Position numbers and translations under genes: made by a program. From the NCBI GenBank assembly GCA_052139855.1, contig JBKQVS010000045.1, positions 657 to 64,656 of the forward strand: a stretch of DNA of 64,000 nt. The letters run 5' to 3'. Below the pieces are notes generated by a model, which saw nothing but the letters and a program-made list of their open reading frames with translations, had not been told where the DNA came from and did no database searches. Positions within the stretch are counted from its first letter, which is position 1. Every line of letters starts with the position of its first letter. This DNA is from Desulfobaccales bacterium (GTDB taxonomy: Bacteria; Desulfobacterota; Desulfobaccia; Desulfobaccales; 0-14-0-80-60-11). Below, in pieces: positions 22,766-47,636 of this stretch.

Positions 22766-22951
22766 CTAAAACTTCTCGCCCGGCAGCAGACTGGCCAGGC
22801 TCTCCCGGGGGATGCGCCAGGGGCCGCAGCCCCACTTGATGCCGGGAATCCGGCCGTCACGGATCATCCGGTAAACGGTGCGGCGGGAGACAACCAGGAT
22901 CGCCGCGGCCTCATCGGGCCGAAAAAAGCGCTTTTTGTGTAATAATTCCAT
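22766..22951 (-). CDS. Excisionase-family (AlpA/MerR-like) HTH protein
   Basis: 61 aa. RPDEAAAILVVSRRTVYRMIRDGRIPGIKWG is an HTH of the excisionase family pattern. Confidence 0.6.
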   Translation of the reverse strand: MELLHKKRFFRPDEAAAILVVSRRTVYRMIRDGRIPGIKWGCGPWRIPRESLASLLPGEKF

Positions 22952-23644
22952 GTTTTAGCCTCCCTGCGGTTGCAGATTTCCCTTCCTTGAGGGTCTGGTA
23001 AATTTGAATGCAAGGGGCAAGCCAGATTTTCATAAGGGCAAGTTTTTCGCTGGGTGCGCCTCACGCACCAATTTCACCAAGGTATAGGCGGACCGTCCTC
23101 ACCCGACACCTTTCTCCATGGTTGTGCGCGGGCCGACGGCTCAGGCGCGACTGGTCCCACCCGTTCAGATAAAAGTGTGCATGCACACCCTCCCTGCAAT
23201 CCCAAGTTGTCAAAGGCAGCAGCCGGCCAGGTCTTATCCACCCCTAAATTAAGGGGGCTTTGGGTTAATTGCCCTAGAGATTGCCGAATCCCTCTAGACT
23301 GATTGCCCTGCACCTGCCGTGCTTCGTCCGCCCGGGCCGGAAAGCCGGCCGGGGCGGTTGCGGCCCGCGTCCGGCGTGATTGTTTCCTGGTCATGCTACA
23401 GAACCCGAGATTTGCCGCCTGCCCCCGCGCAGGGGGAAGGCCGCTAAGTTAAGCAGGGCTTACCTCAGCGGCCCGGAGCCCCGGGGAACTGTTGCTTCAG
23501 TCTTATTTTTCCGGTAAAGGGCTTGGGGCGTTTCCGGCGGCAGGCCGAAGCAAGATATGGGACAGGAGCGGACAGGTGTCTTCCGGGTTGCACGAATCTT
23601 GAATTGGGACAGAGCAACTGCGTCAGAGAAGGGAGGGAACAGCA

Positions 23645-23818
23645 ATGGCCCAAGAACGCCTGATGAGGCCCAGGGAAGTGGCCCACCGCCTGGCGGTGTC
23701 CCGCTCCACGGTGTACCGCTGGTTTTGGGAAGGCAAGCTCAAGGGGATCAAGATCACCGGAGGCACGGTCAGAATCCTGGAGAGCGCGGTCCGGGATAAG
23801 ATGGCCGAGGTTTATTAA
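23645..23818 (+). CDS. Excisionase-family HTH protein, paralogue of 22766..22951 (below the ORF-track length cutoff)
   Basis: Hand translation gives MAQERLMRPREVAHRLAVSRSTVYRWFWEGKLKGIKITGGTVRILESAVRDKMAEVY, with GGAGGGAA upstream of the ATG. Confidence 0.55.
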   Translation: MAQERLMRPREVAHRLAVSRSTVYRWFWEGKLKGIKITGGTVRILESAVRDKMAEVY

Positions 23819-24060
23819 GGGGAACCGGAAATTTTCGGCCCGGGCCAGGCCCGAGTGAGGCAAAGAAAAGGCGGCGGCGCCGCCGGGACAGAGGGAGTCC
23901 ACGATAGAGGTCAAAACGACCCGGCAAGACGTTGTCAAGGTGAGGTCAGACGCGGGGGCAGGAATAGTTGACACCGGCTGAGAGGAGGGATCGGGGCTGA
24001 GTGACAACCGTTCCAGGCGTGCTGGAGACTGAATGGATTATTGCGTATATCCAGGCAAAC

Positions 24061-24531
24061 ATGGCGGGGATAACCAAAAGGACTAAGAAAGGAAAACGCG
24101 ATCTTTATGGAGAGGATGCCCAATCACTCTACCTGGCCGGCAAGGACTTAGAAGAGATTCAGGAGTTGCTGCCGGTGGCCCTGGCCACTTTGAAGCGGTG
24201 GCACCGGGAAGAGAGATGGGAAGAAAAACGGCGGCAGGTAACGGTATGCTCCCGGTGGCTGGGAGAGGCCTTGAAGGGGGTCCTGAGGGAGAAGGCCGGG
24301 CGGCTCATTGTCAGGGGCGACCTGAAACCGCAGGAGCTGGATGAAATCACCAAGATTGTGACGCTCCTGGACCGCCTGTGCAGCCAGGGATGGGATATGC
24401 GGGCTGCGGCCCTGGAAGTGATGGACCGATTCATTCAGTATTTACGGGGGTGGGTGCAGGACCCGGAGGAACTGAAGCAGATTTCGTACCGGGTGCAGGA
24501 GTTTTTCCGGCAATTGGAGGAGGAGTCCTGA
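24061..24531 (+). CDS. Terminase small subunit, Mu gp27-like
   Basis: HTH-like N-terminus (LYLAGKDLEEIQELLPVALATLKRWHREERW), sited directly upstream of the large terminase. The track ORF starts at GTG 24001. Confidence 0.6.
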   Translation: MAGITKRTKKGKRDLYGEDAQSLYLAGKDLEEIQELLPVALATLKRWHREERWEEKRRQVTVCSRWLGEALKGVLREKAGRLIVRGDLKPQELDEITKIVTLLDRLCSQGWDMRAAALEVMDRFIQYLRGWVQDPEELKQISYRVQEFFRQLEEES

Positions 24532-24645
24532 GCCCGGATACCGCGAGGGCGGGGCGCATGGCGCCCACCAGCACGTCACGGTGAAACACGGATGGTTTTT
24601 TGACGGCGGGCAGAGAGGCCCGCCCCACCGGCACAAGGACGTACC

Positions 24646-26172
24646 ATGAACTTGAACAAGAAGTTGACCAAGAGCGAGTTTCGCCAGCGGGCCGATAAGA
24701 TCCTGATGCGTCTGTCGCTAGAAGTGATGCCCTTCTGGGACGACAGTGCAGAAAAGCACCAACAACGGCTGGAGCGGGCCGCAGGTGATCCCCTGTATTT
24801 CTGCCGCACCTATCTGCCGCACTACTTCGCCCACGGCCCGGCGCCCTTTCACCATGAGCTGGTGCGGCTGCTGGAGGAGCGGCACGAAGAGGTGGTGACG
24901 CCCACGGCGGTGGCCGCCCCCCGGGAGTTCGCCAAAACCACAGTGTGCTCCTTCGGCTACGTCCTCCATCAGATTTGTTTCCGGCGGCGGCATTTCATCC
25001 TGATCGGCAGCGACACCGAAGACCTGGCCTCGGATCTCACCGGCTACATCTACCTGGAGCTGCTCTATAACGAGCGGCTGCACCAGGATTTCGGGGAACT
25101 GGCCAAAGGCAATAAGTCGGTGAACGATTTTGTGACCTTGAACGACATCCGGGTTAAGGCCCGGGGCCGGGGGCAGCGCCTCCGGGGCCTCAAGCACAAG
25201 CAGTGGCGGCCGGACCTGGTCATCCTGGACGACCTGGAGAATGACGCCAACGTGCGGAATCCGGAAATCGTCCAATCCATCCTGGACTGGGTGAAATCGG
25301 CAGTCTATCCCGCGGTGGATGCCCGGGGCACCCTGATGGTCATCGGCACCATTCTGCGGTGGCACAGCGCCCTGCACGTGATGCTGACCAGCCTGGATGA
25401 ACCCTACTGCAATTTCCAGCGGCGGATTTACCGGGCCTACCAGGATGACGGGTCGTCATTGTGGGAGGCCCGGCACCCGGTGAGCCGGCTGAAGCTGCAA
25501 AAGCAGCTGATGGGCACCGTGGCCTTCAACCGGGAGAAGATGAATGAACCGGCGCCGGACGGCGGCTTTTTCCAGGAGGACTGGATTCACTACTACCATC
25601 CCGACAGTTTGAAAGACCGGGACCTGGTGGTAACGGGTTTTTTCGATCCCTCCCTGGAGACCGGGGCCACCGCGGATTACAAGGCTTTTGTGACGGTGGG
25701 CTGGGACCGCAGGGAAATGGTGTTTTACGTGATGGACGCGGTCATCCAGAAGACCACTTTGGATCAGATTATGCGCACCATTTTCAACCGGCACCGGCAA
25801 TTCGGCTATCAAGTGGTGGGGGTGGAAGACAACCTGTTTCAGCGTCTCCTGCTCAAGGAGTTCGACCGGATCGGGGTGGAGCGCAGCCAAGTGCTGCCCC
25901 TTAAAGGGGTGACCCACCGCATCGCCAAGGAGACCCGGGTAGCCGGGCTGTCACCGCTGTTGGAGCGGGGCAAGATTCGCTTTATCCGGGGGCATTCGGA
26001 CCAGGAACTCCTGGTGGAGCAGTTGCTCTTCTTCCCGTCGCGGACCCTGCACGACGATGGCCCGGACGCCCTGGAAGGGGCGGTCGGTCTGGCGCGGGGC
26101 CTGCCGACGGGAGAGGCGCCGCGCTATATCCCGGTGAAGCCGCGCCTGTTCCAGAGCCGGGGAGCATTTTAG
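24646..26172 (+). CDS. Terminase large subunit
   Basis: 508 aa with a Walker-A-like PREFAKTT, Walker B LVILDDLEND and a C-terminal nuclease motif (HDDGPDALEGAV). Confidence 0.85.
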   Translation: MNLNKKLTKSEFRQRADKILMRLSLEVMPFWDDSAEKHQQRLERAAGDPLYFCRTYLPHYFAHGPAPFHHELVRLLEERHEEVVTPTAVAAPREFAKTTVCSFGYVLHQICFRRRHFILIGSDTEDLASDLTGYIYLELLYNERLHQDFGELAKGNKSVNDFVTLNDIRVKARGRGQRLRGLKHKQWRPDLVILDDLENDANVRNPEIVQSILDWVKSAVYPAVDARGTLMVIGTILRWHSALHVMLTSLDEPYCNFQRRIYRAYQDDGSSLWEARHPVSRLKLQKQLMGTVAFNREKMNEPAPDGGFFQEDWIHYYHPDSLKDRDLVVTGFFDPSLETGATADYKAFVTVGWDRREMVFYVMDAVIQKTTLDQIMRTIFNRHRQFGYQVVGVEDNLFQRLLLKEFDRIGVERSQVLPLKGVTHRIAKETRVAGLSPLLERGKIRFIRGHSDQELLVEQLLFFPSRTLHDDGPDALEGAVGLARGLPTGEAPRYIPVKPRLFQSRGAF

Positions 26173-26177
26173 GTGGA

Positions 26178-26226
26178 GTGAGCGGTGAGCAGTGAGCGGT
26201 AAGCAGTGAGCAGTAAGCGGTGAGCA
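26178..26226 (+). repeat. Seven tandem heptamers GT[G/A]AGC[G/A]
   Basis: GTGAGCG GTGAGCA GTGAGCG GTAAGCA GTGAGCA GTAAGCG GTGAGCA, starting 6 nt after the terminase stop. Confidence 0.8.
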
Positions 26227-26295
26227 GAAAGACAAAATTGACCAACCGTTGTCTGGACACCGCGCCCAGCTCGCGGCGAATGGTTAGGAGAGACT

Positions 26296-27531
26296 ATGGG
26301 GCTGAAAGATTTATTCGGGAGGATGTTTAAAGAGACGGTGCGGCCGGAGACCCGGGAGTTGTCGGCGGTGAGCCTGGCAGAACGCTGGAGCAGCTACCCC
26401 AGTGCGGGGCTGACTCCGCACCGCCTGGCGGGAATCTTCCGGGAGGCGGACCAAGGCAATGTTTATCGCCAGATGGAGCTGTTCGAGGAAATGGAGGAGA
26501 AGGACGCGCACCTGACGGCGATTCTCCAGACCCGGAAAATGGCGGTATTGGGCAAGGACTATGAGGTGATGCCCTATGCCAATACCCCGGAAGATGCAGA
26601 GATTGCGGCGCGGGTGGGGGAGATGGTCTACGGCATCCCCGGACTGGAGGAGGCCCTCCTGGACCTGCTGGACGCCATCGGCAAAGGGTTTGCCCTGTGC
26701 GAGATCCTCTGGGAGGTGACGGGTGGCCAGGCCCGGGTTTCGGAGTTGCGGTGGATTCCCCAGAAGAAAGTGACCTTCGGGGAAGACTGGAAGCCCCGCC
26801 TGCTGACTCCCGAGGCCAGTTGGCAAGGGATTCTGCCCCCGGTCTGGAAGGCGATCTACCACCGCTACCGGGCCAGAAGCGGCCATGCGACGCGGGCGGG
26901 AGTGCTCAGGGTGGTGGGCTGGATGTATTTGCTGAAGAATTTTGCCTTGAAGGATTGGGCGGCGTTCAACGAGGTGTTCGGGATGCCGCTCAGGCTGGGG
27001 AAGTATGACAGCACCGCCTCGCCGGCGGACCGGGAGGCCCTGGTGCAGGCCATCCGGAACCTGGGCTCCGACGCCGCAGGGGTGATCAGCAAGTCCACAG
27101 AGATCGAATTTGTGGAGGCCACCTCCCGGTCGGGGGGCGCCAACCCGTACCAGCTCATGGCGGATTTTTGCAACCGGGAGATGTCCAAGGCGGTTTTGGG
27201 CCAGACCCTGACGACGGATACCACGGGGTCCACGGGGACGTTTGCCGCGGCCAGCGTGCACGCCGAGGTGCGCCGGGACCTGGTGGAAGCCGACGCCCAG
27301 GCCCTGGCGGCCACCTTGCGGGAACAACTGCTGCGGCCCCTGGTGGGATTCAACTTCGGCTGGGACAAGCCGGTGCCCTGGTTCCGCTTCAGGTTTGAAG
27401 CGGAAGAGGACCTCAAGACCTTGTCCATGGTTTACCGGAACCTGGCGGCCATGGGCGTGCCCCTGGACATGGAGCACGTGGCGGAGCGTTTCGGCATCCC
27501 CCTGGCGGGGGCCGGCGGGAAGGGGAGCTGA
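26296..27531 (+). CDS. Portal protein, Mu gp29-like (DUF935 type)
   Basis: 411 aa. The N-terminal block LAGIFREADQGNVYRQMELFEEMEEKDAHLTAILQTRK is characteristic of Mu-type portals, and the gene lies after the terminase. Confidence 0.8.
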   Translation: MGLKDLFGRMFKETVRPETRELSAVSLAERWSSYPSAGLTPHRLAGIFREADQGNVYRQMELFEEMEEKDAHLTAILQTRKMAVLGKDYEVMPYANTPEDAEIAARVGEMVYGIPGLEEALLDLLDAIGKGFALCEILWEVTGGQARVSELRWIPQKKVTFGEDWKPRLLTPEASWQGILPPVWKAIYHRYRARSGHATRAGVLRVVGWMYLLKNFALKDWAAFNEVFGMPLRLGKYDSTASPADREALVQAIRNLGSDAAGVISKSTEIEFVEATSRSGGANPYQLMADFCNREMSKAVLGQTLTTDTTGSTGTFAAASVHAEVRRDLVEADAQALAATLREQLLRPLVGFNFGWDKPVPWFRFRFEAEEDLKTLSMVYRNLAAMGVPLDMEHVAERFGIPLAGAGGKGS

Positions 27532-27584
27532 CTGAGGTGGTGAGGGACACGAGGCATCGAATCATATTAAGGAGGAAGGGGCTG

Positions 27585-27929
27585 ATGCGGATCGGGAAGA
27601 AACTGGTGATCGCCGGAGTCATTATGGGGTTGTTGATGGGCACCATCATGGGATGCCAAACCTTGAAGAGCGCTTTCTGTTCCCCCACGGCGCAGGAGAT
27701 TGCGGATGCCACCGACTTCGTGGCCAATGCCGACTCATTATTGGCCTTCCTGAACACCCTGGCCCCCGACGCCGAGGTGACCGCGGTGATAGCCGCCCTG
27801 AAGATTGCCAAAGCCGTGTTCGATCAAATCAAGTCCGGCATCTGCGTGTCGTCGGAGCAGCAGGCCGCGGCCCAGGCCGCCATCAACGCGGGCCAAACGA
27901 TGGCCATGAAGCTGGGGTATAAGCCGTGA
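27585..27929 (+). CDS. Small lipoprotein, unknown function
   Basis: The ATG at 27585 is preceded by AGGAGGA. A signal peptide with lipobox (LLMGTIMGC) is followed by an Ala-rich helical body. The 3' end overlaps the next gene start (GTG 27926). Confidence 0.55.
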   Translation: MRIGKKLVIAGVIMGLLMGTIMGCQTLKSAFCSPTAQEIADATDFVANADSLLAFLNTLAPDAEVTAVIAALKIAKAVFDQIKSGICVSSEQQAAAQAAINAGQTMAMKLGYKP

Positions 27930-28723
27930 AAGGGTTTGGGTGGCGCAAGGAACATGCCGACCCCCGGGATTTTACCCACGGGGATATCCCCGAAGTATCG
28001 GACCGGGTTCAGGCAACGGCAGAAAGCCCGGAGGTGGATTTCTTTAAATGGATCGGTCCCATCAAGGACCAGGGGAATCTTGGTTCCTGCGTTGCCAATA
28101 GTATCGCCGGCGCCTATGAGTTCGACGGCATCAAGACCACGGGCACGTATACCTCCGTGTCCCGCCTTTACCTCTATAAGGCGGCCCGGCGATTGGGAGG
28201 CTTTAGCGGGGATTCCGGGGCCTATATCCGGGACGGGATGCGGGCTCTGGTGAGACTGGGGGCGCCTCCGGAAGCCCTCTGGCCCTATCAGGTGGAAACC
28301 TTTGATGCGCCGCCTGATTTCGTGGCCTCCGGATATGCCCAGAACTTTGCGGCCCTGCGTTATGTCAGGCTCAAAAATCTGGCTGAGATCAAGGCGTATA
28401 TCCGGGGCGGCTTCCCGGTGGTCTTTGGGTTCACGGCGTTTCCCTCCATTGATGAGGTGAAAGAAGACGGCTGGGTGCCAGTGCCAAAATCGGGGGACCG
28501 GCCGGCGGGGGGGCACGCGGTCTATGCCTGCGCCTATTCCAACCTGAGGCAGTCGAAGTATTGGCACGAGCCAGCCGGCGCCATCGGGTTCATAAACAGC
28601 TGGGGAGATTGGGGGGATAAGGGCAAAGGCTGGCTGCCCTATGCATATTTTCAACAGGGTTTCTGTGATGACTTCTGGGCTTTGATTTCGGCGAAACACC
28701 CGGATGAGAACGACTTCGACTGA
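27926..28723 (+). CDS. Papain-family (C1) cysteine peptidase
   Basis: 265 aa with the catalytic triad contexts DQGNLGSCVANS (Cys), GGHAVYACAY (His) and INSWGDWGDKGKGW (Asn-Ser-Trp). Confidence 0.8.
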   Translation: MKGFGWRKEHADPRDFTHGDIPEVSDRVQATAESPEVDFFKWIGPIKDQGNLGSCVANSIAGAYEFDGIKTTGTYTSVSRLYLYKAARRLGGFSGDSGAYIRDGMRALVRLGAPPEALWPYQVETFDAPPDFVASGYAQNFAALRYVRLKNLAEIKAYIRGGFPVVFGFTAFPSIDEVKEDGWVPVPKSGDRPAGGHAVYACAYSNLRQSKYWHEPAGAIGFINSWGDWGDKGKGWLPYAYFQQGFCDDFWALISAKHPDENDFD

Positions 28724-28985: not shown

Positions 28986-30026
28986 ATGACGATGACGTCG
29001 AAGGCGGTAAGCCAGGACCAGACTCCTGCCCTGCCCGAATGGATCAGAGTGCTGCCCCTGGGCACCGTGGAGTTGTCGGACCACCGGGAACCGTTTCTGG
29101 TGGACGAAGCGTCGCTTCGGTCCATGACGGCGGATTTCCGCACCCGGGGAGTAGATCTGGTCATCGATTACGAGCACCAATCCCTGCAGGGGGAGCGGGC
29201 CCCGGCAGCGGGCTGGATCAAGGACCTGGAGGCCCGGGGCGACGGGCTGTGGGCCCGGGTGGATTGGACCCAACAAGCCCGGGATTATCTGGAGAAGAAG
29301 GAGTATCGGTACTTCTCGCCGGTGCTGCGGCTGGACCCCGAAACCCGCAAGCCGGTGGCCCTGATGCACGTGGGCTTAACCAACGTGCCGGCGATCAAGC
29401 ACCTGCCGCCCCTGGTGGCCAGGTGGGGCGGGAAAACTGCGGCCCCGGGAGGGCCGCGGCCGGCGAAACCGGCGGTCAGGGCCCGGGCGGGAGACATGGA
29501 CTCAATAAAGGAGAAGGGGATGATGGTGGAACAGCTCAAACGCCTGATGGGTTTGGAGCCCGAGATGGCAGAGGAGGCGGTATGCGGCAAGGCGCTGGAG
29601 GCGTTCCGGGACCTGGCCGGGGCCTTGAATCTGCCGGGTGAAGTATCCGTGGCGCAACTGAAGGGGGCGGTGGAAGCTTTGAAAGCCGGGGCATCGCGCC
29701 TGCTCAAGGCCGAGGAGGCCCTGGAGGCTCTCAAAGTCCGCCTGTCGAGTGAGACGGCCGACCGGCTGGTGGAAGAAGCCCTGAAGGCCGGCAAGGTCAG
29801 CCCGGCCCAACGCGGTTGGGCGCTGGAATATTGTCGACGGGACCCGGAAGGTTTCCAGACCTATGCGAACCGGGCCCCGAAACTGGTGCCCACCGGGGAG
29901 GAACTGCAACTCCTCCGGGAGGATCACCAGGATGAGAGCGGCTTGCTCCCGGAGGAGATGGCCGTGTGCCGCTCCCTGAATGTTGCTCCGGAAGCCTACC
30001 TGAAGGCCAAGGCCCAAACGGGGTAG
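28986..30026 (+). CDS. Prohead protease/scaffold, Mu gpI-like
   Basis: 346 aa. The N-terminal block WIRVLPLGTVE...VDLVIDYEHQS...AAGWI...YRYFSPV follows the Mu I-protein pattern. The C-terminal half is helical and Ala/Glu-rich, like a scaffold. Confidence 0.75.
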   Translation: MTMTSKAVSQDQTPALPEWIRVLPLGTVELSDHREPFLVDEASLRSMTADFRTRGVDLVIDYEHQSLQGERAPAAGWIKDLEARGDGLWARVDWTQQARDYLEKKEYRYFSPVLRLDPETRKPVALMHVGLTNVPAIKHLPPLVARWGGKTAAPGGPRPAKPAVRARAGDMDSIKEKGMMVEQLKRLMGLEPEMAEEAVCGKALEAFRDLAGALNLPGEVSVAQLKGAVEALKAGASRLLKAEEALEALKVRLSSETADRLVEEALKAGKVSPAQRGWALEYCRRDPEGFQTYANRAPKLVPTGEELQLLREDHQDESGLLPEEMAVCRSLNVAPEAYLKAKAQTG

Positions 30027-30112: not shown

Positions 30113-30511
30113 ATGTCAGGATTAACCCGTGACCGGGCTACGCCATACCGGGAAGGTATTGAGATTGAATACCCGGTGGCAGCCAACACGAAAATCTACG
30201 CCGGCTCCCTGGTATGCATCAGTGCCGCGGGATATGCGGTACCGGCGGCGGACACCAGCGGTTATCGGTTCGCCGGGGTGGCCTTGGAACAGGTGGACAA
30301 CAGCGAGGGCGGCAAGAGTGTGAGGCTGCGACGGGCCGGGGTCTTCGAGTTCGACGCGGTGTCCATTAGCCAGGACATGGTGGGAGCGGCCATGTACGCC
30401 GCGGATGACCACACCTTTGATGACGCCGCCGGTCCCACCAATGACATCAAAGTGGGCCTGTTGGTCAAATACGTCTCGGCCACGAAAGGCTGGATCGATA
30501 TCGCCAGGTAA
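30113..30511 (+). CDS. Head decoration/cement-like protein (DUF2190-like)
   Basis: 132 aa, beta-rich, positioned between the protease and the major capsid gene as in many Mu-like and HK97-like head modules. Confidence 0.5.
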   Translation: MSGLTRDRATPYREGIEIEYPVAANTKIYAGSLVCISAAGYAVPAADTSGYRFAGVALEQVDNSEGGKSVRLRRAGVFEFDAVSISQDMVGAAMYAADDHTFDDAAGPTNDIKVGLLVKYVSATKGWIDIAR

Positions 30512-30525
30512 CGGAGGAATCTCTC

Positions 30526-33187: not shown

Positions 33188-33188
33188 C

Positions 33189-34379: not shown

Positions 34380-34516
34380 ATCCCGAAAGTATTGCCTCCT
34401 GGGGCCTCCTGGGCGGCAGCGGCGAAGGGGGGGAGGGGGGGAGGCAGGCCCAACCCAAATTCTGGCGGAACCCATTCAAGTCTTCCTTGCGGCCGATAGC
34501 CTTACCGTGGAGATAG

Positions 34517-35435: not shown

Positions 35436-35448
35436 GAGGGGGTAAGCC

Positions 35449-39074: not shown

Positions 39075-39080
39075 GGTTGA

Positions 39081-39101
39081 GTGAGCAGTGAGCGGTGAGT
39101 A
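39081..39101 (+). repeat. Three tandem heptamers GTGAGCA GTGAGCG GTGAGTA
   Basis: Same heptamer family as 26178-26226, starting 7 nt after the stop at 39074. Confidence 0.7.
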
Positions 39102-39135
39102 ATTATTAAGTTTGTCTATCGAATAGAGAGAAACC

Positions 39136-40812
39136 ATGCGGCAAGCCGGAGCGGATTATCTGCGGGAAGAAGGGCGGTGCCGGGGGGCCAGGCCCCGGGT
39201 GAAGGCGGTGCTCTTCCCCTATGAGCTGGATTACGGGCTGGCCCCGGGCTCCGGAGAGTTTATCCGGACCGCTTATGGCGGCGAACCGGGGAAACTGGCG
39301 ATGGGTGACGGCTATCTGACGTCCGGTGCCTGGACCTCCCCGGTGGTGCAAACATTTTCACCTTACCTGGACGAGGCGGCGGCAGCCTGGGAGGAGCCGG
39401 CAGGACACATGGACGTGGAGATCCGGCTCCGCACCGGGGAGACGCCGGCCGGGGTGGCCCAGGCGGCTTACGCGCTGCTTACGTCGGGGCAGGACGTTTC
39501 CCTGGGCCCGTACTTCCAGGTGAAAGTTGACTTCAGCGAAACCATCCGGGCCTGGGGGATAGATGATCCCGGAGAGGCGGATGGGTTTGCGGCCTATGCC
39601 GCGGACCAGAGCCCGGACGGCGGTTTTGAGAGTTACGCCTCGGACGGGCCAGGGTGTCTGACCGCTTTCAGCCTGGCCGGGCGGCTCACCCTGCCGGAGC
39701 GGGAAATCATTGATGCGGGCGGGGTGCGGGTGGAGTTGGCCCGGGATTTCAGCGAACTCAGGACCGGCGACCACGTCCTGGTCCTGGACAACCGGCTGGG
39801 GCAATGGCTGAACCGGGCCGAAAACGCCTATCTTCAGGATCCGGACTGGACCCGGAAGCAACTGGCGCTGTGGCACGGCTGGGAGCTGCCCAACGGCACG
39901 GTGGCCTGGCAGTTGCTTTACCAGGGAGTGGTGCAGCGCCTGGCGGGGATGGCCCACGGCTGGCGCCAGCAGCATCGGGTCCGCCTGGAAAGCCAGGATG
40001 GGGTAGCGGCGGGGCTCAAGCAGAAGATCGGCGCGCCGGCCGACACGGGGGAGCGGCGGCCGTTTATGCGGGGCACCTACCTGGCCCGGGGAGAGCTGAT
40101 CCGGGTGGTGGAGGCCAGTCTTGGCGAGATCACCCGGACCGGCAGTGGCAGCGCCGGCCTGGACCTCCTGGGGACCTACCGGGGGGACTATCGCAAGGAT
40201 TATCTCCTGGAAGCGGAGACCAGCGGCGAGGTGGGGAGCGCCACCTTCCGCTGGTCCCTGGATCAGGGCCAGAGCTGGCAGAAGGCGGGGCTGGCGGCGG
40301 TCGGGGCGGATAAGCCGGTGGGTTTGGATGAGGGCCTGTCGGTCTCCTGGGAACCGGGGCTGGGGCCGGACCTAGTGGCGGGGGACCGCTGGAGCTTTAC
40401 GGCGTTTCCCCCGATCTACCACTACCAGGTCTTTGGGGCTCCTTTTGAGGCCATCACCGCGGTCTATCTCGCCGGGGAAGAAGACGACGACCGGGTGACC
40501 AAGGACGCCTCCACCGGCCTGATTCAGGTCAGCGGCAAGAACACCTCGGTTTCGGCCCGGGTGGTCAAGGACCACACCACCCACCCGGTGGACATGGTGG
40601 CCGACATTTTAGCGGAAGTGGGCCTGGCGGCGGCCATCCACCAGGATTCCTTTGCCCTGGCCAAGAGCCTCACCCCGGAGTACGCCATCGGGGCGAGTTT
40701 TGAGAATCTCACCGCAGCCCAGGCCATTCGGGAGATCGTCCGGCGCTGCCTCTTTGATCTCTGGATCGATTTTGGGGAGATAAAGATCAGGGCGTATTTG
40801 GGGGAGGATTGA
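39136..40812 (+). CDS. Tail tip/hub-like protein
   Basis: 558 aa. It shares a ~90-aa domain (TSGEVGSATFRWSLDQGQSW...DLVAGDRW) with the next large protein. Confidence 0.4.
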   Translation: MRQAGADYLREEGRCRGARPRVKAVLFPYELDYGLAPGSGEFIRTAYGGEPGKLAMGDGYLTSGAWTSPVVQTFSPYLDEAAAAWEEPAGHMDVEIRLRTGETPAGVAQAAYALLTSGQDVSLGPYFQVKVDFSETIRAWGIDDPGEADGFAAYAADQSPDGGFESYASDGPGCLTAFSLAGRLTLPEREIIDAGGVRVELARDFSELRTGDHVLVLDNRLGQWLNRAENAYLQDPDWTRKQLALWHGWELPNGTVAWQLLYQGVVQRLAGMAHGWRQQHRVRLESQDGVAAGLKQKIGAPADTGERRPFMRGTYLARGELIRVVEASLGEITRTGSGSAGLDLLGTYRGDYRKDYLLEAETSGEVGSATFRWSLDQGQSWQKAGLAAVGADKPVGLDEGLSVSWEPGLGPDLVAGDRWSFTAFPPIYHYQVFGAPFEAITAVYLAGEEDDDRVTKDASTGLIQVSGKNTSVSARVVKDHTTHPVDMVADILAEVGLAAAIHQDSFALAKSLTPEYAIGASFENLTAAQAIREIVRRCLFDLWIDFGEIKIRAYLGED

Positions 40813-40822
40813 GGGGGCGTGC

Positions 40823-40843
40823 GGGCGGGTTTTAAACCCGCCC
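40823..40843. repeat. Palindromic REP-like hairpin GGGCGGGTTT-T-AAACCCGCCC
   Basis: 10-bp perfect arms read directly. Confidence 0.6.
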
Positions 40844-40938
40844 CTACATCGGCTCTATCCATAAAAGCTGGTTTAATGCGCCCATTCATAGAGCGATTGC
40901 CAAAAGTTTTTCCGTTATGGCACATGCTCCAAGAAGCT

Positions 40939-41016
40939 AAATCCCCCCTACCCCCCTTTTTCAAAGGGGGGAACTGAGCGGAACTCCTTCGGAAGTCCCC
41001 CTGTGAAAAAGGGGGA
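40939..41016. repeat. REP-like element (30-nt core identical to 19539-19568) plus a second C/G hairpin
   Basis: AAATCCCCCCTACCCCCCTTTTTCAAAGGG, followed by CCCCCT-GTGAAAA-AGGGGG. Confidence 0.7.
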
Positions 41017-41108
41017 TTCAGGAGGATTTAAGAATCAACAATGGGAAGGAATTGTTGGAAAGCGCCATAAATGCTGAACCATAGCCTTTTTGCCTAAAAG
41101 GAATCACC

Positions 41109-44100
41109 ATGGGACGGATTCAATGGACCCGGGCCGCACAGTTTAATTGGGTCTTCGACAATATGGGCGGGACCCCGCTCCAGGAGGCGGCGGCGGGCAA
41201 CTGGCATCAGGCCGTGGCCACGGTGGCGGAGGATGGCGGCGTGGCGATCACCGCCCCTAACCCCGGGGGCGGCCAAGTCTGCTGGGTGCGGGGGGTATGG
41301 CCGGCGGACACCACGTTCCCCTGGGAAGGTTTTTGGGCCGAGCCCATGGCCGGGGACCTCACCAACTATTACCCGGGGGGGGCCTTTGCCAATGAGGCGG
41401 ACCGGACCAGCATCACCCTGGGGACGGCGCTGCCGGCCGGGACCGCGGTGCAGCTCTACTATATTTACTACACCGGGGAGCAGGCTCTCAAGTATGAGCC
41501 GCTGAACAACTATCCCTGTATCCGCCGGGCCTACCGGGCCCGGGACGATTACACTTATGATTTTGCGGTGGACCGGATGCTGGACCTGATAGCCTTGCTG
41601 CACCTGGCAGGGCGGGAGCGGGGCCGGGACTATGGCCCGCTGATCCGTTTCCTCTGGGATGCCTTTATTAAGCGGGAGGAGTCTTGTACGCCGCCCCTGA
41701 TGCACGACGACTTTGAGCGCCAGCAGTGGGACCGGGGGGCGCACCTGCTCTATCGCGACGCCACGGGTGGGGAGACGGCTTTTCAGATTTTCCAGAGCGA
41801 GGCGGCCGCGGATATGGGCGGCCGGGCGCTCCACGTCAAGGCGGCGCTGGCCACCACCAGGGATGCGGCCTGGTTCGGCTACGGGCTGGACTGGTCCCTG
41901 GCCGCCGCCCCCTTTAAGTCCATGGACCGTCTCACCTTCATCTTGCAGGGGGTGGGCGGCACCAGCCACCTGCACAATCTCACCAAGATCGGCAGCGGCA
42001 GCGCCACCCTGGTGCTCCTGGGGGACTATGCCCAGCAGGAGAAGCGGCGGTTTGTGGTGGAGATGGAGACCACGGGGGAGGTGGGCGCGGCCACCTTCCG
42101 GTGGTCCAAAGACGGCGGGCTCACCTGGGTGACCGGGGGTCTGGTGAGCGGGGACCGGCAGCACCCGGTGACCCTGGAAGACGACCTGGCCGTGGCCTGG
42201 GAGGGGGGGGACGGCACCGACCTGGTGGCGGGGGATTTCTGGATGTTTTGGGGCGGCGAGCCGGCCATCCACCCCCGGCGCCTCCTGGTGACCCTGAACG
42301 ACTCCAGCCAGGAGGATGCGGACCCCTGGGGGACCGAACACACATACGTCCACGCCATTCCGGACCGCTTTACCGGGGCCACCGCCTTTGAGGTGCCGTT
42401 TAGCCAGTTCTGGCGCCGGGACAATATCATTGATGACGGCGACCGGGTTCAGGCCATGTGGGGCAGCTGGTACTCCGCCAGCCAGCCGGGCGACATCGAC
42501 ATCACCATCGGCACCCGGGAAGAGACCGAAATTCTCCTGGGAGAGACCTTTTATACCCAGCGGCAGATTACCTGGGACCTGTCCCCTTATGCCACCGCGT
42601 TCGGGGTGTGGGCCGGAATTGATACTTCGAACTGCAACTCCGCCGGGCATGCCACCGTCAACTTTCTCATCAAGCCGGTGGTGAGCGGCCTCAGCTCCCT
42701 CACCCTCCGGATCAAGGTGAAAGACGCCCAGGGCAGCTATTTCACCCGGGATGAGACGGTCCAGGTCAACACCTGGCAGCGGGTGAGCGTTACCCTGGGG
42801 GAGATGACGCTGGAATCGGGGACGTCCCCCCTCACCCATCCCCTGCAGGTGGTGGATGTGGGGTGCCCGAGTTCTCCTCCCAGCAACGGCACGTTTTATC
42901 TGACCGACCTCAAGTTCGATGAGCACGTGACCTTTGCCGCGGCCGACCGCCTCCGGGTGTTGGAATTCAAGATGGAGCAGCAGGGCCTGGTGGAGCACGA
43001 GTGGTGGCTGGACGATGTGGCGCTGAACCTGAACGCCTCGGACCCCTACCCGTCGGCGCCGCGGCTGGCCATTTCCCTGACCCCTTACGGCCAGAACCCC
43101 TGGCGGGGTCCCACCCCGGTGCATTACGCGCACCCCCTGGCGCCTTACCTGGTGGGGGCCCTGGACCTCAGCCAGACCTATCTCACGCTGCACCGGGACG
43201 CCCAGGAGGAATTTACCCGGCGTTACGGCGGGGCGCCGGGCCCCATCATCCCGGTCCATACCCGCAATGACGTGGAGAATATCGCCTTGTGCGGCGAGGA
43301 GGATTTTCTCCGGTTCTCCTGGTGGCGGCGGTACCGGGATTTCGGCATGGTGGCGGGATTCTGGCATTTTAACGGGGGGCTCACCGATGCCTCCGGGAAA
43401 GACCATAGCCTCACCTGGCAGGGGGGCGGCGTGCCGGGCTATGCCGAGGGTGTTTGCCAGCCGGGGGCCACCGCGGTGGACCTGGACGGCAGCCACTATC
43501 TATCTCTATACGAGGCCGATCTGAATCTGGGGACGGAGGATTTTACCCTCGAGATGGTCCTCAAACCCGGGGCCCTGGCCGACGGGGTGCGGCTGATCAG
43601 CAAGGTGGACCCGGGGGGGACGGGCTTTGAGGTGTGTCTGGTTCCCGGGGGGGCAGTGGCGGTGGTCCTGGCGGACGCCAGCGGCGCTTCCACCCTTGCC
43701 CCCAGCCCCGGGCTCAGCCTGGATACCGCGGCGTACCACTATTTGGCCGTGGCCGGCGACCGGGACGGACAAGTCACCTTCTGCGTGGACGGGAGCCTGG
43801 GAACGTGTGCGGCGGCCCGGCCCGGCAGTCTGGACAACGATCAGGCGTTTACGGTGGGGCGCCGGTCCGGGTCGGGGGCGGATTTTTTCCAGGGGCGGAT
43901 CGACCTGATCCGGGTGCACCGGGGCCGGGCGTTGAGCGGGACCGAACTTAAGGACACCTGGGGGATCATCCAGGGGCAGGAGAACGGCTCGGCCTATCCG
44001 GAAGTGGGCAGCGGCCTGGGCCAATACTGGGCCTTCCTGCGCCTGGCGGAATTTTTTTTCCTGAGCAATGACGCCGGCGCGGAAGCCATTTTGCTCAACT

Positions 44101-45260
44101 GGCTCGCCTGGATCGACGGCGCCGGCGCGGCCGACGGCCCCGGCTGGAAGGTCCCGAGCCAATTCTCGGAGTTCGGTTTCACCTACGGGAGCTACGATCC
44201 GGGGCAGACTGCGGCCATCGCCCTGGGCTGTCTCTTCATCCACCTCAGGAACGGCCATGAGGTGGCGGCCACCTGGGCCCGGCGGCTCCTGGACGATCTG
44301 AGGGAAAACCGCCTGGACCCGGCCTTCGGCGGTTACCAGAGCGACTACCATTACGCCTGGCTGAACGGCCTGGTGCTCAGGGCCTTTGGCCTGGCGGTTA
44401 ACGGCGCGGCCGGCCAGGCGTTCGTCTTTCCGGCCGGTCCTGATGACCGGGACCATTTCGACGCCCTGATGGCCTGGGTGTTCGCTCATGCCGGGGACGG
44501 GAAGCCCAACGTCCTCAACGCCGATTGGATGCCGTTTGCCTACAGCGAGGCCGCGGATGTCTGGGAATACGTGCCGAACTATCTCATCATGAGTCAGCTG
44601 GGGACCCTGGAGGCGGTGGCGGCCATGCTGGGTGCGGCCCTGGAGTATGGCAAGGCAACGGCGGAGTGGACCTGGTGGCAGCGGCTGCTGGACTTTGTCC
44701 TGTTGGATAACCTGGTGGGGTTGTCCCCGGCCCAGATCTGCTCGCTCACCCTGAGCTATGAGCAGACCGGCCCCAAGAACCTGGTGCGGGTGCTCTACGC
44801 CGACTACGACCAGGACAACGATAAGTATGCCGAGGCCCGGGCGGAGGCGGCCATCAGCACCTGGGGGGAGGCGGCCCTGGACCTGGATTGCCGTTACGGC
44901 TCCCCCGTGGTTCTGGAAGACCCGGGGGTGGCCCAGCTCCTGGCTTCCCGGCTGCTGGCGCGGCTGGCGGCGCCCCGGGAACTGGCGGAAGTTTCGACCT
45001 GGCTGGAAGGGGTGCGCCTGGAACTGGGCGACACGGTGGCGCTTTCTTCGGACTTTCACGGGTTGGACCAGGAAGAATTTACCGTGAGCGGCAAGGACCT
45101 GGACCTGGGGGGGCGCTCGGTCAGCCTGAGTCTGGACCGGCCTCTGAACACCTCCTGGTCCTGGGCCGTGGACGCCCCGGGGAGCGCAAATGACGGCTGG
45201 GCCATCGAGGTGGCCAGTTCCTATGATGTCAACTGGGCCTTTCGGGCTGAGGCCGGATAA
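41109..45260 (+). CDS. Large tail-tip/host-specificity protein with a LamG/ConA-like lectin domain
   Basis: 1383 aa. It contains the TTGEVGAATFRWSKDGGLTW domain, a central laminin-G-like block (FWHFNG...DFTLEMVLKP...YHYLAVAGDRDGQVTFCVDG...FFQGRIDLIRVHRGRAL) and a C-terminal gpJ-like tail. Confidence 0.6.
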   Translation: MGRIQWTRAAQFNWVFDNMGGTPLQEAAAGNWHQAVATVAEDGGVAITAPNPGGGQVCWVRGVWPADTTFPWEGFWAEPMAGDLTNYYPGGAFANEADRTSITLGTALPAGTAVQLYYIYYTGEQALKYEPLNNYPCIRRAYRARDDYTYDFAVDRMLDLIALLHLAGRERGRDYGPLIRFLWDAFIKREESCTPPLMHDDFERQQWDRGAHLLYRDATGGETAFQIFQSEAAADMGGRALHVKAALATTRDAAWFGYGLDWSLAAAPFKSMDRLTFILQGVGGTSHLHNLTKIGSGSATLVLLGDYAQQEKRRFVVEMETTGEVGAATFRWSKDGGLTWVTGGLVSGDRQHPVTLEDDLAVAWEGGDGTDLVAGDFWMFWGGEPAIHPRRLLVTLNDSSQEDADPWGTEHTYVHAIPDRFTGATAFEVPFSQFWRRDNIIDDGDRVQAMWGSWYSASQPGDIDITIGTREETEILLGETFYTQRQITWDLSPYATAFGVWAGIDTSNCNSAGHATVNFLIKPVVSGLSSLTLRIKVKDAQGSYFTRDETVQVNTWQRVSVTLGEMTLESGTSPLTHPLQVVDVGCPSSPPSNGTFYLTDLKFDEHVTFAAADRLRVLEFKMEQQGLVEHEWWLDDVALNLNASDPYPSAPRLAISLTPYGQNPWRGPTPVHYAHPLAPYLVGALDLSQTYLTLHRDAQEEFTRRYGGAPGPIIPVHTRNDVENIALCGEEDFLRFSWWRRYRDFGMVAGFWHFNGGLTDASGKDHSLTWQGGGVPGYAEGVCQPGATAVDLDGSHYLSLYEADLNLGTEDFTLEMVLKPGALADGVRLISKVDPGGTGFEVCLVPGGAVAVVLADASGASTLAPSPGLSLDTAAYHYLAVAGDRDGQVTFCVDGSLGTCAAARPGSLDNDQAFTVGRRSGSGADFFQGRIDLIRVHRGRALSGTELKDTWGIIQGQENGSAYPEVGSGLGQYWAFLRLAEFFFLSNDAGAEAILLNWLAWIDGAGAADGPGWKVPSQFSEFGFTYGSYDPGQTAAIALGCLFIHLRNGHEVAATWARRLLDDLRENRLDPAFGGYQSDYHYAWLNGLVLRAFGLAVNGAAGQAFVFPAGPDDRDHFDALMAWVFAHAGDGKPNVLNADWMPFAYSEAADVWEYVPNYLIMSQLGTLEAVAAMLGAALEYGKATAEWTWWQRLLDFVLLDNLVGLSPAQICSLTLSYEQTGPKNLVRVLYADYDQDNDKYAEARAEAAISTWGEAALDLDCRYGSPVVLEDPGVAQLLASRLLARLAAPRELAEVSTWLEGVRLELGDTVALSSDFHGLDQEEFTVSGKDLDLGGRSVSLSLDRPLNTSWSWAVDAPGSANDGWAIEVASSYDVNWAFRAEAG

Positions 45261-45321: not shown

Positions 45322-46377
45322 ATGTCTCTGATAGACCTTCCCCAGACGAAATGGGGCAGCGGCACCGGCCGCCAGGTGATTTTGAAAGGCGATTTCGCCA
45401 AGATCGAGGAGGCGGTGACGGAGGCCTTCGAAGTCACCCGGGGTCCCGGGCTGGAATACGTGGACAGCGCCACCCTGCGGGTCAACGCCACGGCCGATTG
45501 TAAGGCCCGGGCGATGCTGTGCGGTTTTCCCTCCCCCCTGGCCCGGGGCCACTGGGTGGACGGGGGCCTGAGCGACGGCCGCTACCGGGAAAACGCCGCG
45601 CCGGTGAGCCTCAATCTGGCCACCGCCGGTCATCTCTGGGGCACCGAGAAGTCCGACCAGTGGTATGCGGTCTATGCCCTGGCGGGAGCCAACGACGCCA
45701 TCTTCTCCCTGAAAGCCATGCCGGTCATCCGGGTGGCTTCCCAGGACAGCCAGGTGATTACCCTGAGGAACAACGCCAATGGGGCCAACATCGGGTATGG
45801 CTTTACCGCCAACGAACTGGCGGGGGCCGGCCTCCTGATCCTCAGCGGGGCTTCCCGGGGGCTGCTCCGGGCAATCACCGCCAACAATAACGACAACGCC
45901 ACCGGGGGCACCATCACCTATAGCGGCGCGGCCCTGAGCCTGGCCCAAGGGGATTGGGGCGTGGTCCTGCCCAGCACCAACTTCCGGTACCTGGGCATGG
46001 GGTTTAACGATACCTCCGGCAACCTGGCGCCCTTTTACCAGGAGGCCGGCCGCACCACTTACCGCAGCCCCCGGCAGTTGTGCAGCGGGGCCATTAACGG
46101 CTACACCCTGATGGACCTGGGTCTGATGGCCCCGCCCACGGCGTCCGGGCTGACGGGGTATGCCGCGGCTGCGGCGGGCTACGACGTGAAGCTGGCCGTG
46201 TCATACGACGGCAGCACCCCGGCCCTGGTGGTGCACGGCAGCCCGCCGTCGGGCGACTTCCAGGGAGCGCGGGGGGCCATCCCCTTTGCCTGCCAGGTGT
46301 TGGACGGCGGCCGGGTCTATCTGAACAACGACAACACCGCCAATCAGGCGGTCAAGGTCACGGGTTGGAGGGAATAA
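45322..46377 (+). CDS. Tail fibre/receptor-binding-like protein
   Basis: 351-aa Gly/Ala/Asn-rich beta-type sequence after the host-specificity gene. Confidence 0.4.
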   Translation: MSLIDLPQTKWGSGTGRQVILKGDFAKIEEAVTEAFEVTRGPGLEYVDSATLRVNATADCKARAMLCGFPSPLARGHWVDGGLSDGRYRENAAPVSLNLATAGHLWGTEKSDQWYAVYALAGANDAIFSLKAMPVIRVASQDSQVITLRNNANGANIGYGFTANELAGAGLLILSGASRGLLRAITANNNDNATGGTITYSGAALSLAQGDWGVVLPSTNFRYLGMGFNDTSGNLAPFYQEAGRTTYRSPRQLCSGAINGYTLMDLGLMAPPTASGLTGYAAAAAGYDVKLAVSYDGSTPALVVHGSPPSGDFQGARGAIPFACQVLDGGRVYLNNDNTANQAVKVTGWRE

Positions 46378-46637
46378 TGACCCTGGATGGCAAAAAAACC
46401 TATATCACCGCGGTAGCGGCGGCCTTGGCCAGTTTTGCCCTGGCCATGGGGTGGCTGACCAAAGAACAGTACCAGGTGGTCCTGGGCCTGTTGGGGTCCC
46501 TGGGGCTGGCGGCGCTGCGGTCCGGGGTGGCCAGGGGCGCCACGGATAAGGCCGCGGCCGGCGAACCGGACGAGGCGGGGGCCGGGCCCGGAGGGTCCCA
46601 GTCCGCGGCCGGGTGCGGCGCCGGCGGTAACGGCTAG
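46377..46637 (+). CDS. Holin-like membrane protein
   Basis: 86 aa from an ATG that overlaps the upstream stop (TAATG), with GGAGGG upstream, two hydrophobic helices and a charged Ala/Gly tail. Confidence 0.45.
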   Translation: MTLDGKKTYITAVAAALASFALAMGWLTKEQYQVVLGLLGSLGLAALRSGVARGATDKAAAGEPDEAGAGPGGSQSAAGCGAGGNG

Positions 46638-46686
46638 GGGATGAGGGGTGCGGGGGACCGCCGCCTCAGAGGATTCTTGAAAAACT

Positions 46687-46953
46687 ATGATGAATTATCA
46701 AGACTTAAGTGAGCACGTGGGGGCTTTGGTCACGCTGCTGGGCCTGTTTGCCGGGGTGAGCGGCCTCCTGGTGTGGCGTATGCTGGTGCGCATGGAGAAG
46801 AAGGTGGACGAGCTGTCGCAGCATTTCTGCATCTGCCGTGAGGAGCTGGGGGACCGCTTCGTCCCCCGCTTCGAGCATGAGGTGGAACACCACGGCATGT
46901 GGGAGGCCCTCAATTACCACAGCCACGATATGCGGGGGAGGGTGGTGCGATGA
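46687..46953 (+). CDS. Membrane-anchored phage protein
   Basis: 88 aa with an N-terminal helix (VGALVTLLGLFAGVSGLLVW). Confidence 0.4.
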   Translation: MMNYQDLSEHVGALVTLLGLFAGVSGLLVWRMLVRMEKKVDELSQHFCICREELGDRFVPRFEHEVEHHGMWEALNYHSHDMRGRVVR

Positions 46954-47165
46954 GCGAAGATCGGGTGGATTGCCTGGTCAACCGTCTCCACGTGACCTGC
47001 CTCACCCTCATCCGGCTGAAGCGAGAGGCGGTCTATGGCCAGGACCCGGGCTTTTTGGAACTGCTGGGAGGATATTTATTGCACAGCCGCCGGTTAATGG
47101 ACCTCATCCGGGACCGGGAGGCCATGGGAAATCCGCACCGGCGGCATGGTTCGCCTCCCTGCTGA
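46950..47165 (+). CDS. Small phage protein
   Basis: 71 aa from an ATG at 46950 that overlaps the upstream stop (ATGA). Confidence 0.3.
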   Translation: MSEDRVDCLVNRLHVTCLTLIRLKREAVYGQDPGFLELLGGYLLHSRRLMDLIRDREAMGNPHRRHGSPPC

Positions 47166-47207
47166 GGTGATGAGCCGGGGCAGATCTCCCGGAGGGGGAG
47201 TTGGAGC

Positions 47208-47636
47208 ATGATCGAATATCCATGGATGGCGATTGCCAGAAGGAAACTTGGAATCCACGAAATCCCCGGCCCGGAGGCGAACGCCTTTATCGTGGAATGC
47301 CTGGAATCCACGACCCTGGGGTATCCTGAAAATCAATCGGATGAGACGGCCTGGTGTTCCGCCTTTGCCAACCGGGTCATGCAACTGGCCGGGTATGATG
47401 GCACCAATAACGCCTGGGCGAGATCGTGGCTCGATTGGGGCCGGGAGCCGACCGATGGAGAGTTCGGCGCAGGGGTAATAGTGATCCTGGAGCGGGGGGC
47501 AAACTCCGGCCACATCGGGTTTCTGGAGGATTGGGAGGATAACCGGGTAAAGCTCCTGGGCGGCAACCAGGGGAATGCCGTAAGTGAAGCCTGGTTCCCC
47601 ATGAGCCGGGTTTTGGGGTATCGGGTGCCTGCCTGA
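47208..47636 (+). CDS. Endolysin, NlpC/P60-CHAP-like (TIGR02594-type pattern)
   Basis: 142 aa with a Cys context ETAWCSAFANRVM and a His context GHIGF, at the end of the phage cluster after holin-like genes. Confidence 0.65.
   Translation: MIEYPWMAIARRKLGIHEIPGPEANAFIVECLESTTLGYPENQSDETAWCSAFANRVMQLAGYDGTNNAWARSWLDWGREPTDGEFGAGVIVILERGANSGHIGFLEDWEDNRVKLLGGNQGNAVSEAWFPMSRVLGYRVPA

Follow-up and report, generated by a model that had tools for sequence, protein, structure and literature searches.

A Mu-type head, tail and lysis gene cluster conserved beside ftsH in Desulfobaccales: a strong candidate for a gene-transfer-agent-like system

Gene content of the cluster

In a 64,000-nucleotide stretch of the genome of a Desulfobaccales bacterium (contig JBKQVS010000045.1; this whole stretch is hereafter called the window), a sequence-only reading had pointed to a complete phage head-tail-lysis cluster between ftsH and cvpA, devoid of integrase, transposase, replication and repressor genes, and had proposed that it may be a domesticated particle locus or one that resembles a gene transfer agent (GTA). 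We scanned the open reading frames (ORFs) of the window with Pfam and PHROG profiles and the gene inventory was confirmed. Positions 22766-47636, about 25 kb, hold about 28 intact genes, for two small helix-turn-helix (HTH) regulators, DNA packaging, a Mu-type head, a short and predicted non-contractile tail, and lysis (Table 1). These profile scans detected no integrase, transposase, recombinase, replication gene or CI-type repressor inside the element. Around 30 co-oriented genes had been described; the intact cluster stands, with about 28, but one of the two HTH genes (22766-22951) lies on the opposite strand.

In line with the inspection by eye, no terminal direct repeats were found. Its composition is also that of the host, with a GC content at third codon positions (GC3) of 0.816 against 0.812, the exception being the gene of the protein p398 (0.51). 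To the right of the element the window contains host genes only. Scans of the window for tRNA genes and Rfam families found nothing, and scans for promoter and terminator consensus sequences gave hits no more numerous than in shuffled sequence.

The Mu-type head module is complete, with portal, gpI, gpT, gp36 and gp37 genes. The best matches of the large terminase subunit, TerL, among cultured phages are those of the transposable Pseudomonas siphophages DMS3, JBD24 and MP38 (~32% identity), and the gpT-type capsid protein matches PDB entries 8rkc and 8rkx, annotated as 'Mu GpT domain protein' (E = 2e-61). The small subunit, TerS, measures 154-160 amino acids (aa) in most of the orthologues examined. 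Its whole length can be aligned with the TerS of a Mu-like phage locus (L072), which is equally long, and the alignment includes a conserved N-terminal HTH-like motif, but no Pfam DNA-binding domain was detected in it. The cluster is not of the tail-only (tailocin) type, since it keeps terS, terL, portal, scaffold, cement and capsid genes under constraint.

The tail tube candidate of the sequence-only reading turned out to be a 431-aa tube protein. It has 453 homologues; among the 120 listed, most are 429-432 aa long and many carry PF18906. Its AlphaFold (AF2) model (mean predicted local distance difference test score, pLDDT, of 68.5) best matches the tube of P74-26 (8ed0, E = 2e-8) and also matches T5 pb6. 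We considered this protein as the sheath of a contractile tail and rejected the idea, the fold search having returned siphophage tube proteins. Because it is modelled as a fused double-domain tube like those of P74-26 and T5, the tail is predicted to be non-contractile. The chaperone pair claimed earlier is real: in 23 out of 23 orthologous loci compared, the second ORF lies in the -1 frame with respect to the first. We infer a frameshift at this place, for which no canonical slippery heptamer was found. The tape measure protein, 215-266 aa long in 16 species, matches only the C-terminal ~220 positions of a 1123-position profile.

In orthologous loci the tip gene order p121-p558-p1383 is kept, and tip proteins diverge faster than head proteins (median identity of 55% for p558 vs 81% for gpT). 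A search of 50,697 phage records returned no match to the 1383-aa tip protein, the tube protein likewise has none in phage records, and neither the 558-aa nor the 1383-aa protein has a PDB sequence match. The putative fibre gene p351 is placed before the small membrane proteins in 12 loci. The CHAP domain of the lysin scores 26.1 bits for a cutoff of 26, and this lysin was detected in only eight right-end loci, all of relatively close relatives (mazG identity of at least 81%).

Table 1. Features of the phage-like element and its two flanking genes, in window coordinates; dN/dS, ratio of nonsynonymous to synonymous divergence.
Feature	Position	Strand	Evidence and remarks	dN/dS
ftsH	20554-22458	-	left flank of the element	
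HTH1, 61-aa HTH_17 (excisionase/MerR-like) regulator	22766-22951	-	leftward; Pfam HTH_17, E = 1e-13	0.21
Conserved promoter/operator-like block	23560-23603	+	GGACA-N6-GACA, then GCACGAATCTTGAA; ~42 nt upstream of HTH2	
HTH2, 57-aa HTH_17/AlpA-like regulator	23645-23818	+	first gene of the rightward string; Pfam HTH_17, E = 6e-11	0.18
terS, small terminase subunit, about 156 aa	24061-24531	+	phrog_4151, E = 3e-9; ORF open from GTG at 24001	0.18
terL, large terminase subunit	24646-26172	+	phrog_38, E = 9e-91	0.16
(RGTRAGC)n heptamer array	26177-26231	+	terL-portal spacer; Tandem Repeats Finder (TRF)	
Mu-type portal	26296-27531	+	Pfam Portal_Mu, E = 5e-110	0.16
Lineage-specific pair after the portal	27537-28723	+	lipoprotein-like, 27585-27929 as called; papain-like Peptidase_C1, 27926-28723, E = 4e-6	
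Mu gpI-type protease/scaffold	28986-30026	+	Pfam Mu-like_Pro, positions 1-330 of 330, E = 3e-71	0.33
Capsid cement/decoration protein	30113-30511	+	Phage_cement_2; phrog_1731, E = 5e-29	0.21
Mu gpT-type major capsid protein	30526-31422	+	Pfam Mu-like_gpT, E = 1e-107	0.15
Conserved 112-aa protein between head and neck genes	31549-31887	+	30 loci	0.27
Variable cargo slot	31991-34855	+	p398, p396, 112-aa phrog_1084 protein	
Mu gp36- and gp37-type head-tail joining proteins	35013-35880	+	Pfam, E = 1e-29 and 1e-17	0.31, 0.33
Tail tube protein, 431 aa, fused double-domain type	35902-37197	+	PF18906 homologues and fold match	0.22
Tail assembly chaperone pair	G, 37239-37622; T extension, 37613-37951	+	T extension in -1 frame	
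Short tape measure, 253 aa	37938-38699	+	phrog_339, E = 3e-6	0.38
Tail-tip module, 121-aa, 558-aa and 1383-aa proteins	38709-45260	+	Laminin_G_3 and Phage-tail_3 in the 1383-aa protein (Pfam)	0.20-0.33
Second, shorter (RGTRAGC)n array	39080-39100	coding strand	intergenic	
p351, putative fibre/receptor-binding protein, 351 aa	45322-46377	+	no family match; role inferred	0.26
Lysis module, small membrane proteins p86 and p88, p71, CHAP lysin	46377-47636	+	phrog_1259, E = 1e-30; lysin at 47208-47636	0.16-0.37
cvpA	47871-48482		right flank of the element	

Position and inheritance of the element in Desulfobaccales

We scanned bacterial and archaeal genomes, one per species, with terL and then mapped the proteins of the window onto the loci found. 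Relatives with a TerL 60-93% identical occur in 58 species-level loci from Desulfobaccales-type metagenome-assembled genomes (MAGs). In 44 loci the upstream DNA is long enough to judge, and in 40 of them the element stands directly beside ftsH; there the order is the same: uppP-ybbR-cdaA-folP-ftsH on the left, then HTH1, then HTH2-terS-terL-portal-...-gpI-cement-gpT-...-gp36-gp37-tube-chaperones-tape measure-p121-p558-p1383. No integrase or replication gene was found in any orthologous locus. For the right end, metagenome contigs were anchored on the host gene mazG, and we observed that 21 metagenome loci run from p1383-p351-p86-p88-p71(-lysin) straight into cvpA-mazG-histidine kinase. A 205-kb contig, from a species whose tube protein shares 75% identity with that of the window, carries the whole cluster with both ends the same and no recombinase.

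Divergence of the element follows that of its host. A Mantel test on matrices of nonsynonymous divergence (dN), host genes (ftsH and cdaA) against element genes (terL, portal and gpT), gave r = 0.90 (p = 1e-4, n = 23 taxa); the element/host ratio of synonymous divergence (dS) is 1.0-1.2, and element-host identity correlations reach a Spearman coefficient of 0.93. Given the fixed site, this Mantel correlation and a dS ratio of about 1, we conclude that the element is inherited vertically.

Three related species have a reduced version of the locus. L061 (9956-12287), L062 and L063 carry only HTH1, HTH2, an intact 515-aa TerL and an unrelated 224-aa membrane protein between ftsH and cvpA; the complete chromosome OY969108.1 belongs to the L061 lineage. 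The sequence-only reading had raised the prospect of relatives without the locus and with clean att-type junctions; what these species keep is a deletion remnant, not a clean att junction. The dN/dS of terL in them is about 0.40 vs 0.16 elsewhere, which suggests that the other genes were lost secondarily and that constraint then relaxed.

Purifying selection on the element genes

We determined dN/dS as median Nei-Gojobori values. For the element genes tested, from the regulators to the lysin, it is 0.15-0.38, and for the flanking host genes ftsH, mazG, folP, cdaA, cvpA and ybbR it is 0.12-0.35. The lowest group (0.15-0.18) consists of terL, portal, gpT, terS and HTH2; HTH1, cement, tube, chaperone and p121 lie at 0.20-0.22, and gpI, gp36, gp37 and tape measure at 0.31-0.38, while the tip, fibre and lysis genes cover 0.16-0.37. 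ORFs are intact in 47/49 loci for the portal, 42/44 for gpT and 49/58 for terL; most orthologues are full-length and stop-free, and protein lengths are conserved. Judged from these substitution rates, the structural genes are kept by purifying selection.

Relationship to Mu-like phages

A 35-kb IMG/VR contig (L174) carries genes for a MuA-like transposase (rve and Mu-transpos_C), a MuB-like AAA protein/ATPase, Gam and GemA at coordinates 116-6123, within 10 kb upstream of terL. Its late gene products are homologous to those of the element, with identities of 48% for TerL, 46% for the portal, 39% for gpI, 38% for gp36 and 37% for the tube. By its gene content this contig is an autonomous Mu-like relative. 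Because it carries early genes above homologous late genes, we conclude that the element is the late half of a Mu-like transposable siphophage, of which the early half is missing. Neither the element nor any orthologous locus encodes transposase A or ATPase B, and the insertion site is fixed; the early half (transposase A, ATPase B, Gam, GemA etc.) was lost, probably in an ancestor of many Desulfobaccales. The related Mu-like phage locus L072, with a GemA gene (5099-5551), is on the same MAG contig as an orthologous element locus (L059).

Viral contigs (L164-L173) encode a TerL 53-62% identical to that of the element, and their portal and capsid genes are unrelated to it. The terminase gene has apparently been exchanged between different head modules.

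Regulators and control region

HTH1 adjoins the cluster in 53 loci and HTH2 was found in 54. The only clearly conserved stretch of the spacer between them is the block at 23560-23603 (mean column conservation of 0.81 in 47 aligned lineages). Its motif is present in 47/47 of these lineages, including the remnant lineage, and exact matches to GGACA-N6-GACA and to its second part occur nowhere else in the window. We propose a promoter role for this block. A sigma-54 promoter was considered, the spacing being -24/-12-like, but rejected as both invariant doublets are missing.

In 15 species, the next gene after HTH1, on its own strand, encodes a response-regulator receiver/TPR protein; in one locus of this kind, ftsH is not the neighbour. 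The gene is full length in L024, L029, L030, L033, L034, L042, L046, L049, L050 and L070, and shorter in L040, L041, L043, L048 and L051. It is absent from the window's own lineage. This gene may be part of the control unit of the element, and its position after HTH1 suggests a link to host phosphorelay signalling. An extra gene of ~400 aa between ftsH and HTH1, present in many lineages, was also considered as a possible integrase. This was rejected: it encodes the response-regulator/TPR protein and is elsewhere a DHO_dh gene.

Repeats and lineage-specific genes

The tandem repeats of the cluster had been taken for host-type. On the contrary, the (RGTRAGC)n arrays are a feature peculiar to the element: nine matches were found against 1.03 expected, and eight of the nine are in the element. 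An array occupies the same terL-portal spacer in 12/49 orthologous loci (L014, L017, L021, L024, L032, L033, L037, L053, L054, L064, L068 and L069), and many intergenic arrays are present in a phage contig, L168, whose TerL is 62% identical.

The pair of genes after the portal, which includes the papain-like protein, is restricted to relatives with a TerL identity of at least about 83%, apart from a weak match (29%) in L049. Among species, the gpT-gp36 slot measures from 101 to 4349 bp. Here it holds p398 and p396 (31991-34379), which have a lower GC content; none of the other species loci contains p398, the repeats inside p396 are about 41 aa long, and neither protein has a family or structure match. 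These two genes are accessory cargo. A second cargo slot follows the tube gene, with extra genes in another species (L187, 11375-13720), and p86 and p88 lie between head and tail genes in many lineages.

Discussion

The comparison of related genomes bears out the domesticated particle locus that the sequence-only reading had suggested: the same ftsH-side site in most loci, co-divergence with the host and purifying selection along the whole length all support it, and nothing that this reading had named as refuting it turned up; DNA transfer itself is a prediction. From its gene content, the loss of early genes, its fixed position, co-divergence and selection, we regard the locus as a strong candidate for a new GTA-like system. 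Our favoured explanation, which we hold to be probable, is an anciently domesticated, vertically inherited, Mu-derived particle locus, which selection has kept functional and which is most likely GTA-like.

Particle production would be governed by the divergent HTH_17 pair, acting on the one conserved promoter/operator upstream of HTH2, and the adjacent response-regulator/TPR protein would join this control unit in many lineages. From this single promoter a ~24-kb rightward gene string would be transcribed in a subpopulation of cells and give Mu-type heads, with scaffold/protease and cement protein, which the TerS/TerL headful motor would fill. The heads would then join short non-contractile tails with a fused double-domain tube and a large tip; a tail of ~38 nm is estimated from the 253-aa tape measure at 1.5 Å per residue. 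Membrane proteins and lysin would release the particles by lysis.

Phages of the Mu type package DNA straight from their integrated copies, start at a defined site and always carry host ends. The cargo of the particles would be host chromosomal DNA, since Mu-type terminases package from integrated DNA and this single-copy element can neither replicate nor transpose. As its one copy does not replicate, no substrate other than host DNA would be abundant, and for this reason a GTA-like role is favoured. A Mu-type terminase works on DNA integrated in the chromosome, so that a phage deprived of its transposition genes, and of nothing else, could become a packager of host DNA. A 'host ends' packaging class has been mentioned, and headful packaging is regarded as the route to GTA evolution (PMC7947584). 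A more far-reaching version, which we put forward only tentatively, is a GTA that spans the order, arose independently from a transposable Mu-like phage and is coupled to host signalling by the HTH pair and the response-regulator/TPR protein, maybe with full-size heads that move tens of kb per particle.

Several points weigh against the favoured explanation. Twelve loci anchored on cvpA-mazG, that of the close relative L099 included, lack the element at this junction. Inheritance is therefore not strictly uninterrupted; either the right junction is conserved only within a subclade, or the element was lost or moved in some lineages. In L099 (1-9200) and L137 (1-9400), one of which has a mazG identity of 89%, rubredoxin-reductase-like and other host genes precede cvpA, with no element and no ftsH. 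All the carriers are uncultured MAGs or metagenome contigs, many of them long, with contigs of ~2 Mb and one complete chromosome among them, and particles, packaged DNA and transfer are predictions from the genes. As dS is near saturation for many pairs, the meaningful part of the dN/dS values is their comparison with host genes measured alike. The scaffold/protease, cement and capsid genes look unreduced. A Mu-like phage head has T=7 and holds about 37-39 kb; a full-size head could thus hold the whole 25-kb locus, unlike those of classical GTAs. Lastly, the TerS proteins of known GTAs are reportedly without a DNA-binding domain (PMC11841831); the TerS of the element keeps its HTH-like N-terminus and its full length, so packaging may still be site-directed.

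Among the alternatives, a defective phage of the PBSX type comes first. Its tails would kill or inhibit competitors, and host DNA in its heads would be a by-product with no productive transfer. In the Bacillus subtilis group, PBSX has a single, conserved location. The PBSX-like Bacillus prophages are non-excising, host-conserved terminase-head-tail-lysis clusters under small DNA-binding regulators, kept by the host, and have the same inventory as the element, without integrase or replication genes. Selection is strong on the tail tip and fibre, not only on head genes, and the faster divergence of the tip proteins would suit a targeting function. However, the PBSX tail is contractile, its genes are unrelated to those of the element, and PBSX kills without transducing. 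The tail predicted here is non-contractile and very short, and killing by such tails is less well established than by contractile ones. Moreover, few genes are as constrained as terS, terL and portal (dN/dS of 0.16-0.18), and a particle for which the packaged DNA did not matter would explain this less easily. We judge a killer particle unlikely, albeit a serious competitor.

A site-directed packager of itself and of lateral DNA appears slightly less likely still. TerS would read a pac-like site in or near the element, and the particles would carry the element with downstream host DNA; its spread or repair among relatives could then proceed by homologous recombination at the ftsH and cvpA flanks. 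The full-length TerS with its HTH-like N-terminus, the apparently unreduced head genes and the conserved repeat arrays near the terminase genes fit this idea, and Mu-type packaging is known to begin at a defined site in integrated DNA. But one chromosomal copy without replication would allow very few particles per cell to be filled from a single site. Their presence in only 12 of the 49 loci and at many intergenic sites of L168 speaks against a unique pac role of the heptamer arrays, and since dS is equal in the element and in its flanks, there is no sign of frequent replacement.

We consider it highly improbable that the element is a still-mobile phage or satellite which uses recombinases of the host or a helper (Xer-type integration, or mini-Mu mobilisation by a helper transposase). 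It has no recombinase of its own, and Mu-like phages with early-region genes (L072, L174) exist in the same host clade, but the same locus is occupied in 40/44 species and element divergence tracks the host; moreover, the ftsH-HTH1 junction varies (response-regulator/TPR or DHO_dh gene), so there is no fixed att site, no terminal direct repeats were found, and a replication module is missing. Finally, many bacterial genomes carry defective prophages and the L061-L063 species lost most of the cluster, but an ordinary defective prophage in neutral decay, intact by chance, is effectively refuted by the intact ORFs, the kept lengths and dN/dS values of 0.15-0.38 across dozens of species with ftsH identity down to 77%.

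The favoured Mu-derived, GTA-like locus can be compared with known systems. Like RcGTA and the RcGTA-like elements of Alphaproteobacteria, it is a chromosomal head-tail-lysis cluster without integration or replication genes, vertically inherited over a large clade under purifying selection; a short tape measure, a very large tip protein with Phage-tail_3 and headful-packager ancestry are also shared with RcGTA. The earlier likeness to the Rhodobacter GTA cluster thus holds for the organisation but not for homology, only the Phage-tail_3 tip domain being shared in kind. The head-tail genes are not homologous: here portal, protease/scaffold and capsid are of Mu type (PF06074, PF10123 and PF10124) and the tube is P74-26/T5-like. 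Also unlike RcGTA, the element retains a scaffold/protease and a TerS with an HTH-like N-terminus, its host belongs to Thermodesulfobacteriota, its genes have so far been seen in one locus, and it is known from its genes only.

With the Mu-like siphophages (DMS3, JBD24, JBD30, L174 and L072), the element shares homologous terL, portal, gpI and gp36 genes, a gpT homologue (PDB 8rkc) and the same late-gene order. It differs from them by the absence of transposase A, ATPase B, Gam and GemA, by a fixed site in many species as opposed to random sites, and by a drastically shortened tape measure (253 aa vs the 1123-position profile). Compared by description only, the Dd1 GTA of Desulfovibrio desulfuricans (Rapp & Wall 1987, as cited in PMC11841831) is a small tailed particle with host DNA, from another sulfate reducer of the former Deltaproteobacteria; under current taxonomy, however, its host is in a different phylum-level lineage. 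Unlike R- and F-type tailocins, the element has head and packaging genes, and unlike phage satellites, such as phage-inducible chromosomal islands (PICI) and capsid-forming PICI, it lacks an integrase/replication module and has a complete tail module.

To our knowledge, only a handful of independently evolved GTAs have been recognised. Full-text searches of the literature turned up neither a GTA nor a conserved phage-like cluster reported from Desulfobaccales, and no GTA derived from Mu. New GTAs are hard to find by homology, and discovery outside Alphaproteobacteria is limited by the reliance on similarity to known GTAs (PMC11841831). Conserved synteny, host co-divergence and dN/dS can reveal such elements without homology to known ones. 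If the locus is a GTA, it would represent a new origin, from a transposable phage ancestor, and a new host group, the Desulfobaccales being widespread anaerobic sulfate reducers of sediments, groundwater and lakes. The route would have been a simple one: a phage with a terminase that already took its DNA from the chromosome lost its early half. Should each particle contain a headful of Mu size, these uncultured anaerobes could exchange much larger fragments than those moved by classical GTAs.

Other mobile and accessory genes in the window

A low-GC island is present at window positions 1000-7300 (GC of 0.37-0.39 against 0.62 in the host; GC3 of 0.35). It encodes two serine recombinases of 572 aa and 224 aa (1088-3815), a 110-aa HTH_17 protein and several proteins without family matches, and is a distinct mobile element, apparently recent, with no relation to the phage-like cluster. 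We considered whether these recombinases serve the cluster and rejected this. They belong to an island of 37-39% GC, ~15 kb away and beyond sdh, uppP, ybbR, cdaA and folP, and the intervening conserved host genes flank the cluster in other species, where no recombinase was detected. Among the host genes to the left of the element, a Fic-domain protein and a small upstream partner (11804-12387) possibly form a toxin-antitoxin pair.

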